From NCBI GenBank assembly GCA_031257795.1, contig JAIRNW010000055.1:1-41363 (forward strand): a DNA stretch of 41,363 bases, written 5' to 3'. Source of the stretch: Holosporales bacterium (lineage in GTDB: Bacteria > Pseudomonadota > Alphaproteobacteria > BNTO01). The notes below the pieces were generated by a model. It was not told the origin of the DNA, did no database searches, and was given only the letters and a program-made list of their open reading frames with translations. A program made the translations under genes and the position numbers. Positions within the stretch are counted from its first letter, which is position 1. Each line of letters opens with the position of its first letter. Shown here piece after piece: positions 17,176 through 34,807 of the stretch.

Positions 17176-17297
17176 TACTCAGCCACAAAAAGAATTGTGA
17201 GCAAGAGTCTCGAAGCGCAGGCGCCGAGCTGTACTTAACGTACTGCTCAAGCTGAGCACCGAAGCGACGAACTCACAAACTTTTTGTGGCTGAGTAT
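17176..17297. repeat. family-B palindromic element (full copy)
   Basis: Termini tactcagccacaaaaag ... ctttttgtggctgagtat, with a central gtacttaacgtac palindrome. Confidence 0.9.
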
Positions 17298-17315
17298 TCA
17301 CGCCGAAACGGGCTC

Positions 17316-30960: not shown

Positions 30961-31038
30961 ATACAAAATTTTGATGCCTTGTCGTAGGACAAGCGCAATG
31001 CTACACTGCAGCAGGTAGTGTTTTGTCAGAAGTGTTCA

Positions 31039-33027
31039 ATGATTAATGTTCGCGTCAAGGGAGCTGAGCCGCTCGTCATACAGTCAACCGCCTGCGTCAG
31101 CGGCGTCGAAGCTGTGAAAGCTCTCCTAGAGAAAAGCCAAAAGCTAGAAGCCCCGGCGGTTTTGTGTAATGTGAACGGCACGACATGCGATCTAACAACA
31201 CTGATCCCAGATAAAGCCGATGTAGAGATTCTCACGCTGCACTCGCCAGAAGCCCTAGAGGTGATCCGCCACAGCACGGCTCATGTCATGGCAAAGGCAG
31301 TGCAAGAGCTCTATCCCGGAACCAAAATCGCGATCGGCCCGGCAACGGATACGGGCTTTTTCTATGATTTCGCCACTCCACAGCCGTTCTCGCAAGATGA
31401 CCTGCTCAAGATAGGAATCCGCATGAAGGACATTGCCACCCGCGATTTGCCGTTTGAAAGGCTTGTGGTCTCGCGAAAGGAGGCTCTCGAGCTTTTCTCG
31501 AAACTTGGTGAAGAGTTCAAGGTCGACATAATAAACGGCCTGGACGCGGACGAGGTGTCGCTTTACAAATTGGGCGAGATGTACGATTTGTGCAGAGGGC
31601 CGCATCTGCCTTCCACAAAATACATATGTGGCCAGGGACATGTCCTGCCACTGAAGGAATTAGCAACAGGAGAATTGACGGACTCACAAACTTTTGATGA
31701 CGTGGAACGGGCTCAATTCGCATTAACACGTGTCTCCGCCGTCTACTGGAAAGGCGACGCCAGCAAGCCGTCCCTCCAAAGAATCACAGGCGTCTCCTTC
31801 GCCTCCAAACACGAGCTGGACGAGTACTTTTACAGGCTAGAAGAGGCCGAGCGGCGCGATCACCGGAAGCTCGGCGTTGAGCTGGACCTCTTCCACATGC
31901 AGGATATCGCGCCAGGTGCCGTTTTTTGGCACGCCAAAGGGTGGGCCCTCTACAGAACGATCAAAGGATTTATCCGCGATAAAATGCAGAAATTCGGCTA
32001 CGACGAAATGAACACCCCGATGATCGTCGACAAAACCCTATGGGAGAAGTCGGGTCACTGGGAGAAGTTCCGCGAGAATATGTTTGTTACAGAGGCAAAC
32101 GATGGCGAGCAGCTCGTGCTTAAACCAATGAATTGCCCGTGCCATGTGCAGATCTTTAACAAAAAGGTGGTTAGCTATAGGGACCTCCCTTGGAGAATCG
32201 CCGAGTTCGGTTCGTGCCATAGGTATGAGCCGTCCGGGGCTTTGCACGGCCTTTTGAGGGTGCGCGGCTTCGTACAAGATGACGCCCACATTTTTTGCCG
32301 CCCGGACCAGATTGTCGGCGAAACGAAACTTTTCTGCAAGTTGCTGAACGAAATCTATTCCGAACTTGGGTTTAACAGTTATTCTGTGAAGTTCTCTGAT
32401 AGGCCAGCCAAAAGAGCCGGGAACGATGCGATCTGGGACCTTGCTGAGCAAGCATTAAAAGAAGCTGCAGAAGCGGCAAATCTGAGTTATTCGTTGAATC
32501 CGGGAGAGGGGGCTTTTTATGGACCGAAACTTGAATTTGTTTTGAAGGATTGCCTTGGGCGAGAGTGGCAATGTGGGACGTTGCAGGTGGATTTTGTTCT
32601 TCCTGAAAGACTCGAGGCGCGCTACGTCACAGAGCAGGGGACGAAGGAGCATCCAGTTATGTTGCACAGGGCGGTGCTCGGTTCTATGGAAAGGTTCATA
32701 GGAATTTTAATTGAGCATTACGCGGGGAAGTTCCCGGTATGGCTGGCTCCTGTGCAGGCGGTTGTTGCGACGATCACAAACGACGCGGATGATTACGCGG
32801 AACGAGTGGTGGATATGCTTAAGGGGGGCGGAGTGCGCGTGGAGACGGATCTGCGTAGAGAGAAGATCTCTTACAAAGTGCGCGAGCATTTCAGCCAAAA
32901 AATCCCATACATTTTCGTGGTTGGGAAGCAAGAGGTCGAGAACAAGACGGTTTCCGTGCGCGAACTCGGTTCGGAAGATACGCAGACAAAGCGTGTTGAC
33001 GAGCTTCTCGGCCTTTTCAGGGCGTAA
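31039..33027 (+). CDS. thrS: threonine--tRNA ligase, with an apparent in-frame repeat-derived insertion
   Basis: MINVRV TGS-domain start at the ATG at 31039. Class II motifs follow (FGSCHRYEPSGALHGLLRVRGFVQDDAHIF, GEGAFYGPKLEF, MLHRAVLGSMERFIGIL). There are about 29 extra aa between CRGPHLPS and AVYWKGD relative to E. coli ThrRS, aligned from memory. Confidence 0.96.
   Translation: MINVRVKGAEPLVIQSTACVSGVEAVKALLEKSQKLEAPAVLCNVNGTTCDLTTLIPDKADVEILTLHSPEALEVIRHSTAHVMAKAVQELYPGTKIAIGPATDTGFFYDFATPQPFSQDDLLKIGIRMKDIATRDLPFERLVVSRKEALELFSKLGEEFKVDIINGLDADEVSLYKLGEMYDLCRGPHLPSTKYICGQGHVLPLKELATGELTDSQTFDDVERAQFALTRVSAVYWKGDASKPSLQRITGVSFASKHELDEYFYRLEEAERRDHRKLGVELDLFHMQDIAPGAVFWHAKGWALYRTIKGFIRDKMQKFGYDEMNTPMIVDKTLWEKSGHWEKFRENMFVTEANDGEQLVLKPMNCPCHVQIFNKKVVSYRDLPWRIAEFGSCHRYEPSGALHGLLRVRGFVQDDAHIFCRPDQIVGETKLFCKLLNEIYSELGFNSYSVKFSDRPAKRAGNDAIWDLAEQALKEAAEAANLSYSLNPGEGAFYGPKLEFVLKDCLGREWQCGTLQVDFVLPERLEARYVTEQGTKEHPVMLHRAVLGSMERFIGILIEHYAGKFPVWLAPVQAVVATITNDADDYAERVVDMLKGGGVRVETDLRREKISYKVREHFSQKIPYIFVVGKQEVENKTVSVRELGSEDTQTKRVDELLGLFRA
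31612..31713. repeat. degenerate family-B fragment inside thrS
   Basis: The reverse complement cacgtcatcaaaagtttgtgagtccgtca matches the B terminus cacagtcacaaaaagtttgcgagttcgtcg (36773) at about 24 of 29 positions. It also contains the palindrome ggacatgtcc. Confidence 0.6.
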
Positions 33028-33113
33028 AGACAAGTGTGGCGAGTTGGTTACCGAGTTACAAAAGTGGCGAGCAGAGGATCGACGAGCTATCAAACTTTTG
33101 GCGTACGAGTTGT

Positions 33114-33234
33114 ACGCAGCCACAAAAAGAGTTGAGTGCAGGAGATTCTTCCGCGCAGGCGAAGAGCTGCGTCGACGTACTGCTCGAGCCGAGCAGAGAA
33201 TCGACGAACCATCAGATTTTTTATGGCTGGGTAC
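33114..33234. repeat. family-B palindromic element (with additional fragment 33036..33112 upstream)
   Basis: cgcagccacaaaaagag ... ttttttatggctgggtac. It ends 1 nt before the ABC-F start codon. Confidence 0.88.
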
Positions 33235-33235
33235 C

Positions 33236-34807
33236 ATGATTATTGTAAAAAATCTCGCTAAGAGTTTAGGGGGCAAGGTCATTCTCGAAAATTTTTCGTA
33301 CCAATTCCCAAAAAAAACAAAAATCTCGTTGATTGGCGCGAACGGCGTGGGAAAGACCACTCTCCTGAACATGCTCTGCAAACTAGACGAACCGGATAGT
33401 GGCGAGCTAATAATCCCGCGAGAGTGCGTGGTTGGCTATCTCCCGCAGTCTCCAAACGAGTTCCCTAAAAAAACAATTCTGCAAGAGTGTATGTCTGGGG
33501 CCGTCGCCTTGTGCTCTCTTCAGGAAGCTCTAGACGCATCACTAGAAAACATGACGCAAAATTACTCAGAAAAAACATTTGACGCCTATGAGAAAGCGGA
33601 AAAAGCCTTCGCCGACAGCGGAGGCTACGCGCTCGAGTCCGATGCGAAGGGAATCTTGGTGGGCCTCGGGTTTGAGACAGCGCAATTTTCGGAGTCCCCA
33701 CACATTTTATCAGGCGGCTGGCGCATGCGGCTGGAGCTGGCGAAATTATTGATCAACAATCCTAATTTTCTGATTCTTGACGAGCCAACGAACCATCTCG
33801 ACCTCCCGAGCTTATTGTGGTTGGAGCAGTATCTCAGTGATTTTCAGGGAACGCTGCTTTTTGTTTCCCACGACCGCGACTTTCTCAATAATATTTCTGA
33901 GACCACGCTACATATGTCTAATGGTGTGATTCGGGTTTATAACGGAAACTTCGACTCTTTCCTGCAGCAAAAAGCCCAACGAACAGAGCAAATGCATAGA
34001 GAGAAGGTCTCTTTGCGAAAACAGCAGGACCACATGCAGGCTTTTGTTGATAGGTTCCGAGCGAAAGCCACAAAAGCCAAACAGGCACAAAGCCGACTGA
34101 AGATGATCGAGAGGCTCAAGGAGATTGAGGCGAAGTTGGATGTCTCGATGGAGACAAAGGAAAAGAGGGCCAATTTCAATATTATGGTGGAGAAGCCCAG
34201 CGCCAAAGTTGTTTTAACGCTGGATGGGGCGGCCATTGGGTACGGCGAAAATATAATCAATAGCGGCCTATCTTTGAAGATTTTACGTGAAGAAAAAGTC
34301 GCAATAATTGGGGCGAATGGAATTGGGAAGTCGACGTTATTGAAGAGCATCGTCAATGAAATTCCGTTTGTGGATGGGGAATGCGTTTTTGGAACGAACG
34401 TGAAGTACGGCTATTATTCTCAGGAGCAGCTGGACATCCTGGATGCTGGGAAAAACGTGATCGAGAACGTTTTGGCGCTCGCTCCAAACATCACAAGGCA
34501 ACAGGCTTATGCCGCCCTCGGGAGCCTCTTGATCAAGGAGGATGATTCGAAAAAGCTTGTAAAGGTGTTGTCTGGAGGGGAAAAAAGCAAAGTGGCACTG
34601 GCGGGCCTGCTCGCGCAAAGAAACAATTTCCTCATTTTGGACGAGCCGACGAACCACCTGGACATGTCGAGCGTGGAGGCCCTCGCCGGCGCGCTGAATC
34701 TTTACAACGGGACTGTTTTGGTTGTAAGTCATAACCGCGCTTTCATTAATGCCTTCGCCACGCGCATCTTTCAGATGGAAAAGCGGAGGGCGTGTGGAAA
34801 AGCATAG
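33236..34807 (+). CDS. ABC-F family ATPase (two ABC domains, no TMD)
   Basis: Starts at the ATG at 33236 (MIIVKNL). Walker A GANGVGKTTLL and GANGIGKSTLL. Signatures LSGGWRMR and LSGGEKSK. The ORF-track start at 32711 overlaps thrS and repeats and is rejected. Confidence 0.93.
   Translation: MIIVKNLAKSLGGKVILENFSYQFPKKTKISLIGANGVGKTTLLNMLCKLDEPDSGELIIPRECVVGYLPQSPNEFPKKTILQECMSGAVALCSLQEALDASLENMTQNYSEKTFDAYEKAEKAFADSGGYALESDAKGILVGLGFETAQFSESPHILSGGWRMRLELAKLLINNPNFLILDEPTNHLDLPSLLWLEQYLSDFQGTLLFVSHDRDFLNNISETTLHMSNGVIRVYNGNFDSFLQQKAQRTEQMHREKVSLRKQQDHMQAFVDRFRAKATKAKQAQSRLKMIERLKEIEAKLDVSMETKEKRANFNIMVEKPSAKVVLTLDGAAIGYGENIINSGLSLKILREEKVAIIGANGIGKSTLLKSIVNEIPFVDGECVFGTNVKYGYYSQEQLDILDAGKNVIENVLALAPNITRQQAYAALGSLLIKEDDSKKLVKVLSGGEKSKVALAGLLAQRNNFLILDEPTNHLDMSSVEALAGALNLYNGTVLVVSHNRAFINAFATRIFQMEKRRACGKA

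Follow-up and report, generated by a model that had tools for sequence, protein, structure and literature searches.

The threonyl-tRNA synthetase (ThrRS) of an uncultured Holosporales bacterium (GTDB lineage Bacteria; Pseudomonadota; Alphaproteobacteria; BNTO01) raises the question how an essential, single-copy enzyme came to hold a loop that is missing in the relatives examined. The gene thrS is located on a contig of 41,363 nucleotides (JAIRNW010000055.1, assembly GCA_031257795.1), which was analysed at its full length and is called the window below. The window is full of copies of an imperfect palindrome of about 125 nt, the family-B repeat. A preliminary description of the window had claimed an in-frame insertion derived from this repeat in thrS. 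Our analysis supports the claim: both termini of the element were located within an insert whose borders had been set independently by protein alignment, and all relatives examined were devoid of the insert. With high probability, as judged from sequence comparison, the extra segment derives from a mobile palindromic element of family B that landed in a loop of the ThrRS editing domain.

The extra segment in ThrRS

The coding sequence of thrS and the other features are listed in Table 1. As start codon, the ATG at 31039 (MINVRV...) suits the starts of the orthologues better than the GTG at 31018; the closest relative begins with MINVRI... All residue numbers are counted from this ATG. ThrRS is present once in the 0.91-Mb assembly of 86 contigs, the remaining matches are weak class-II paralogues. 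In a phmmer comparison with the PDB sequences, the match breaks at one place: query residues 196 to 226/227 are matched by residues 201-203 in 6vu9 and by chain residues 192-196 in the E. coli enzyme (1qf6). A whole-genome search of 30 relatives revealed the split at query position 196/226-227 in almost every genome that matched ThrRS strongly, and only a few codons lie between the two pieces on the subject side. The alignment of ThrRS orthologues suggested in the preliminary description was made with MAFFT for seven sequences of the same family and one at class level. It has a clean gap of 27 columns in all eight orthologues, the window reading KYI-CGQGHVLPLKELATGELTDSQTFDDVERAQ-FALT at a site where the orthologues have, e.g., RFI-GY/GD/GK-A-FKIT. 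The net gain amounts to 26-27 residues. The closest ThrRS obtained from a search of 5.8 billion proteins, P0002 (JGI (Joint Genome Institute) metagenome 3300042643, contig Ga0466704_435094, here L027), is 70 % identical overall and lacks the segment 31627-31716.

These borders modify the initial measurements. About 29 extra residues had been assigned to 31612-31713; the segment exists, but its start has to be placed at about 31627, as the nucleotides 31612-31626 code for the conserved STKYI outside the insert. The spacing between CRGPHLPS and AVYWKGD had been given as 46 residues versus 17 in E. coli and was measured as 41 versus 14. Since the insert is delimited by protein alignment, independent of the repeat, the relevant search space for an element is about 87-90 nt and not the whole gene.

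Probable repeat origin of the insert

Two hidden Markov models (HMMs) of family B were built, the first from 7 and the second (B2.hmm) from 86 full-length copies. In the nhmmer comparison of B2.hmm with thrS alone, which the preliminary description had proposed as a check, exactly two hits were obtained in the 2-kb gene. Both are within the insert and represent the two termini of the element, side by side, colinear and on one strand (Table 1). An earlier multiple alignment had placed the thrS segment on both element ends with the centre gapped. The centre missing from the thrS copy comprises 54 nt, equal to 18 codons. A termini-only model, from which the HMM columns 40-88 had been removed and in which the termini were joined, matched the insert continuously with 25.9 bits, compared to a maximum of 6.4 bits for 2000 shuffles of the thrS region. 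A control with repeat-masked genome windows was partly circular, as matches above about 19 bits had been masked before, thus the nhmmer E-value and the shuffles were relied on instead. The full extent of the remnant is inferred to be about 31639-31710 (72 nt, 24 codons).

The likeness of the segment end to the family-B terminus at 17268-17296, reported at the outset, was found again as an exact 14-mer, ACTCACAAACTTTT, at 31682 and 17271. If up to 2 mismatches are allowed, the window contains the 14-mer at 10 sites versus 0.41 expected. In a repeat-family search, 31667-31710 was grouped with 17256-17299 in the families D7 and D11. The element is read in the frame +1 of the consensus, as the HMM positions 5 and 89 each coincide with the first base of a thrS codon. 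In this frame the consensus peptide is YTQSQKELWAGD[SKRRRRAVLNVLLQPSIG]STNPQTFCGWV, and the thrS peptide ..LPLKELATGE-LTDSQTFDDV.. represents its two ends. The repeat remnant would be the cause of both the additional length of about 27 residues and the split tRNA_SAD match of this ThrRS.

The internal palindrome GGACATGTCC of the preliminary description is present at 31636-31645, but carries no evidential weight: about 40 perfect palindromes of 10 nt are expected by chance in 41 kb. It overlaps the 5' part of the insert, 31627-31641. This part was compared as a candidate with the 3' terminus of a second element, TGTGGCTGGGTATAT, and rejected: 11 of 15 bases match, but so do those of 3 % of random 15-mers of thrS.

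Table 1 Features of thrS and of family-B copies; coordinates without prefix refer to the window, those with a C prefix to contigs of the assembly
Feature	Coordinates	Strand	Description
thrS coding sequence	31039..33027	+	662 aa; TIGR00418 665.6 bits; Pfam tRNA_SAD, tRNA-synt_2b, HGTP_anticodon
Lineage-specific insert	31627..31716	+	C197-Q226, 30 residues (CGQGHVLPLKELATGELTDSQTFDDVERAQ) vs 3-4 in orthologues
Insert 5' part, not covered by element match	31627..31641	+	TGTGGCCAGGGACAT; overlaps palindrome GGACATGTCC
Family-B 5' terminus homologue	31642..31678	+	HMM 5-41; nhmmer E=0.034 vs thrS alone
Family-B 3' terminus homologue	31672..31705	+	HMM 89-122; nhmmer E=7.5e-5 vs thrS alone; holds 14-mer ACTCACAAACTTTT
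Termini-only model match, continuous	31644..31705	+	25.9 bits; genome-wide E=4.9e-6
Reference full-length intergenic family-B copy	17176..17298	+	nhmmer 122.9 bits, E=3.6e-36
Family-B in murC	6538..6663	-	full-length, in frame; nhmmer E=3.2e-33; within 539-aa open frame; terminus identity 84 %
Family-B in acetyl-CoA synthetase	C4:7199-7320		full-length, in frame +1; peptide ..HTQSQKELMAGEATHRRGAVLDVLLKPSIDSTNQQTFCDCV..
Family-B in RecJ	C61:1137-1247		full-length, in frame; same frame as thrS copy
Family-B in class-I aminoacyl-tRNA synthetase	C62:8029-8153		full-length, in frame
Family-B in pyridine-nucleotide oxidoreductase	C71:13324-13446		full-length, in frame
Family-B in MurB	C71:3224-3348		full-length, in frame
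Family-B in radical-SAM enzyme	C38:531-656		full-length, in frame
Family-B in GlyRS beta	C48:1027-1154		full-length, in frame
Family-B in Sua5/TsaC	C56:4435-4562		full-length, in frame

The family-B repeat in the genome and in relatives

Genome-wide nhmmer searches (0.91 Mb, E below 1e-3) yielded 481 hits with the first model and 527 hits covering 52 kb with the second, a density of about one copy per 1.9 kb. The consensus, TATACCCAGTCACAAAAAGAATTGTGGGCAGGAGACTCGAAGCG...CGGATCGACGAACCCGCAAACTTTTTGTGGCTGGGTATA, forms a near-perfect hairpin of -66.9 kcal/mol. Its termini TATACCCAGTCACAAAAAG and CTTTTTGTGGCTGGGTATA are mutual inverted repeats and have degenerated in the thrS copy. The consensus has TA at both flanks, and the alignment ends are ragged. 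A tandem array on one contig (C2:5502-5878) contains three copies head to tail (5502-5625, 5630-5750 and 5756-5878), each with 88-90 % identity to the consensus.

Nine or more other housekeeping genes that could be recognised contain a full-length copy in frame (Table 1). Apart from murC, the element has the orientation of the gene in nearly all of these eight genes, and all three forward frames are used. Long open frames with several copies were observed as well: 1476 codons with five or more in-frame repeats at C12:223-4650 and 800 codons with four at C69:557-2956. These may be arrays that are open merely because the element is stop-free in several frames, or genuine repeat-module proteins.

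Family B is related to the repeats behind the RPE1 domain, named after Rickettsia palindromic elements (RPEs). Copies with a second terminus type, family A (SEFWEGDTEHRSGAYLDVREHSSTGSTYPKTD), have translations that match NCBIfam TIGR01045 (RPE1 domain) at 41.5-42.4 bits, with a cut-off of 30 bits. A six-frame search with TIGR01045 detected 101 matches in this genome, of which about 80 exceed the cut-off. G003, a genome from another genus of the GTDB family, had 29, and 14 control genomes had none. The loci matching TIGR01045 are also hit by the family-B HMM, at the central positions 11-110 and with E-values of 1e-14 to 1e-17. The families A and B thus share a common core and differ in their termini. 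Neither the peptide of the thrS insert nor the frame +1 peptides of family B matched TIGR01045 at E-values up to 10; the thrS remnant consists of B-type termini only, without the core shared with family A.

In other genera of the GTDB family, BLAST searches revealed 48 family-B matches in G005, eight in G007, five in G003 and one in G008; G001, G006 and G009 had none. The thrS insert was absent in all relatives examined, including the four repeat carriers. The preliminary description had named the same insertion in distant relatives lacking the repeat as an observation against a repeat origin; no such case was found. The closest homologue P0002 has a separate insertion of 42 residues in the N-terminal TGS domain, IYPTAKRIDGRSLGAQALSRTSGTAQAEHRSNEPTNFLRSG. 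On the DNA level (L027:407-532, within thrS at L027:253-2280) this is a full-length family-B element of 126 nt in frame 0 (96 bits, E=1.2e-30). By these alignments, thrS appears to have been hit twice independently in two sister lineages, at different sites and in different frames. The flanks of the filled and empty thrS sites of the window and L027 are too diverged to read a target-site duplication. The Pfam domain TGS (PF02824) was not detected in the ThrRS of the window nor in the homologues P0002, P0004 and P0006, although the N-terminal part can be aligned with relatives that contain TGS. The N1 domain seems to evolve rapidly in this clade. Directly downstream of thrS on L027, a small open reading frame (ORF) with a transposase-associated domain (DDE_Tnp_1_assoc) was observed at L027:2455-2649.

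Age and shortness of the thrS copy

The thrS copy shares 69 % of its bases with the consensus over 62 aligned positions. Among 168 full-length copies, the median terminus identity is 80 %, and values of 69 % or less are limited to 6.5 % of them. Terminus identities of the eight full-length copies in recognisable genes range from 79 % to 88 %. The fold of the thrS insert (minimum free energy -16.7 kcal/mol, z=+0.74) is no better than that of shuffled sequences. Sequence divergence thus places the thrS copy among the more decayed family-B copies, and the description of the insert as shorter and more degenerate than the copy in murC holds, including a lost hairpin. The further reading as an older insertion in decay can be kept in part. 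The identity lies within the lowest 7 % of the copies, but the shortness need not be decay, as about 20 other termini-only copies of 60-80 nt are present in the genome, e.g., C67:2321-2388, C3:8058-8130, C48:1152-1228 and C61:11443-11521, with E-values of 1e-15 to 1e-5. Several of these share one junction (..TCGAAGCAACGAAC..), from which the thrS junction, GGAGA-ATTGACGGAC, differs slightly.

The following course of events is proposed. A family-B copy, similar to a miniature inverted-repeat transposable element (MITE), would have entered thrS after the split from all sampled relatives. It would have landed in the N2/tRNA_SAD editing domain, 7 residues past CRGPH, in a loop that tolerates additions. 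The copy would have come in the only orientation and frame without a stop codon (+1 of the consensus) and have added a whole number of codons, so that the sole ThrRS gene stayed open. The cell would then produce a ThrRS enlarged by a loop of about 27 residues. The frame would have been held open by selection on the essential host gene, and the element sequence itself, under little or no constraint, would have drifted to 69 % identity with loss of the hairpin. Either a pre-shortened termini-only variant was inserted, or the hairpin apex was deleted later. We infer that the enlarged ThrRS is synthesised and functional, that the loop lies at the surface without affecting function, and that the events took this order.

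The two routes to the short form have roughly equal chances. That a termini-only variant, shortened beforehand to about 70-80 nt, was inserted directly has a probability approaching one half. The short copies of the same architecture on C67, C3, C48, C61 and elsewhere argue for this route. Compared with the junction common to the short subfamily, however, the linker of the thrS copy lacks about 5 nt, and no other short copy was seen in a recognisable gene. Alternatively, and with a chance somewhat below even, a full-length element of about 125 nt was inserted as in murC, and the apical 54 nt were lost later by replication slippage, the loss being kept as a multiple of three. In favour of the later loss, all other in-frame copies in recognisable genes are full length, the missing part is exactly 18 codons, the junction of the thrS copy is unlike that of the short subfamily, and the copy is old by its identity. 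The termini-only copies, about 20 in non-coding DNA and several with one junction, speak against it: short variants recur or propagate.

Position of the insert in the protein and alternative origins

The insert is situated within the Pfam domain tRNA_SAD (N2 editing domain) and begins 7 residues past His189 of the conserved editing-site motif DLCRGPH. The 44-position profile of tRNA_SAD is stretched over the residues 173-249, compared to 210-260 (51 residues) in P0002. His78, His82, Asp183, Cys185 and His189 as well as Cys366, His417 and His543 are invariant in the ThrRS alignment; following the E. coli ThrRS literature, we take the former to serve in editing and the latter in zinc binding. 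In the AlphaFold2 model, the insert is placed between the strands 181-184 and 227-235, and the linker helix 257-272 comes after it. As this helix is C-terminal to the insert, the site is not the linker between the editing and catalytic domains, to which it had been assigned, but inside tRNA_SAD.

Several observations weigh against an origin from the mobile element or against parts of this explanation. The thrS match is short (62 nt) and only 69 % identical, and the full-length HMM did not report the thrS copy in the genome-wide search at E below 1e-3. The deletion boundaries of the termini-only model were picked after viewing the thrS alignment, so its genome-wide E-value is somewhat optimistic; the repeat origin of the insert does not depend on it. 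The hairpin, a property that defines the family and is found in its consensus, is missing from the thrS copy. The element leaves 9-15 nt at the 5' side of the insert unaccounted for. In the AlphaFold2 model the predicted local distance difference test (pLDDT) values of the residues 200-223 are about 30 (below 50) and those of the flanks 72-88, which would fit a floppy loop, but the model was built on 9 sequences and the residues 324-415 are also poor, so that the low values are weak evidence for such a loop. Finally, the genome is metagenome-assembled.

A co-opted loop that alters ThrRS editing, tRNA contact or a non-canonical interaction and is kept by selection is unlikely. Its position inside tRNA_SAD, 7 residues from the histidine of the CRGPH editing site, would suit such a role, as would a frame that stayed open long enough for divergence to 69 % and the occurrence of such inserts in three aminoacyl-tRNA synthetases of this genome. 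However, the closest relatives function without the loop, AlphaFold2 gives no confident structure for it, and selection on the host gene alone suffices to keep any insert open that preserves the frame of an essential single-copy gene. The insert is known from a single sequence, in which constraint is not measurable. A tolerated passenger is the most likely state of the thrS insert.

Still less probable is an unrelated, lineage-specific expansion of the loop, e.g., by slippage duplication, with a chance likeness to the termini of the element. The match is indeed short and degenerate, 31627-31641 has no significant match, and there is no hairpin. Chance would, however, have to provide two colinear terminus hits in a target of 87 nt that had been set beforehand by protein alignment, at a genome-wide E-value of 4.9e-6 and with shuffled sequences remaining at or below 6.4 bits versus 25.9. 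The same element has entered thrS in the sister lineage and nine or more other genes of this genome, in each case in frame. A repeat-induced misjoin in the metagenome assembly is hardly credible: repeats do disturb this assembly, with many contigs ending in repeat copies, but the thrS copy is diverged and unique (69 %) instead of a collapse-prone exact repeat, both of its flanks are thrS in one frame, and its length preserves the frame.

Comparison with known palindromic elements

Rickettsia palindromic elements, especially RPE-1, were reportedly described by Ogata et al. in Science in 2000 and in Genome Research in 2002, and protein-coding palindromic repeats in Wolbachia genes are said to be the subject of an article by Ogata, Suhre and Claverie in Trends in Microbiology in 2005. 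RPEs have a size of about 150 bp, and nearly half of the 44 integrations in R. conorii are in frame in genomic ORFs (PMC10969869). Family B and RPE-1 are alike in several respects. Both are palindromic repeats of about 100-150 nt in an obligately host-associated alphaproteobacterium with a small genome, and both are present in many copies, with numerous in-frame insertions that leave unrelated housekeeping genes open. Moreover, the family-B core is homologous to the genome copies matching TIGR01045. The differences concern the host, which is Holosporales-like and not a Rickettsia and has a GC content of about 47.5 %, and the termini of family B, which are different and have a frame +1 peptide not matching TIGR01045. 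The copy density is far higher here, and the copy in thrS is without the core and has lost the palindrome. The palindromic repeats of Wolbachia, likened here by description only, resemble family B in their location in coding genes of an intracellular alphaproteobacterium outside Rickettsia; the host order differs.

Bacterial MITEs (ERIC, Correia/NEMIS, BOX, RUP, QMITE; PMC10969869) are likewise short, non-autonomous and bordered by terminal inverted repeats, here TATACCCAG...CTGGGTATA, and occasional in-frame fusions with host ORFs are known among them (PMC10969869). They are, however, mostly intergenic, and an entry in frame into essential enzymes at such a frequency has been reported mainly for RPEs. 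A literature search limited to one collection gave no paper that pairs Rickettsia palindromic elements with Holosporales. The thrS insert is seen as an in-frame insertion of the RPE type, real but ordinary, and as a further case of a known phenomenon that is not known to have been described for this lineage.

The genome as a whole permits a wider proposition, which we regard as equally likely to be right or wrong. Protein-coding palindromes of the RPE type would then not be peculiar to Rickettsia and Wolbachia. They would form a superfamily of modular build, its RPE-1-like core combined with exchangeable termini, massively active now or recently in a Holosporales-like family, at about one copy per 2 kb, in at least ten housekeeping genes in frame and with thrS hit twice. 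If true, aminoacyl-tRNA synthetases are recurrent, tolerant targets, and the clade is a natural experiment in essential enzymes gaining surface loops from mobile DNA. The thrS remnant alone is a minor annotation point. It also illustrates the later fate of RPE-type insertions: diverged, coreless and hairpin-free in an essential single-copy gene. Together with the younger full-length copies in murC, murB, glyS and others and the copy in the sister thrS, it would form a chronological series, outside Rickettsia, from insertion through tolerance and shortening to drift. For annotators and phylogeneticists, caution is advised, as conserved marker genes in this clade hold segments derived from mobile elements.

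Further copies near thrS and at contig ends

The gap between the thrS stop codon (33027) and the downstream gene of an ABC-F ATPase is filled by a full-length family-B copy (33111-33236) and a fragment of a 3' terminus (33068-33103). Both are open in the frame of the ABC-F gene, and the naive ORF 32711-34807 lengthens the N-terminus of its product by about 190 residues. Many contigs have an RPE1-type copy only a few bases from an end, e.g., at C15:5-109, C13:5-109, C53:4-108, C40:4-108 and C9:7-111. The repeats are probably the cause of the fragmentation of the assembly into 86 contigs.

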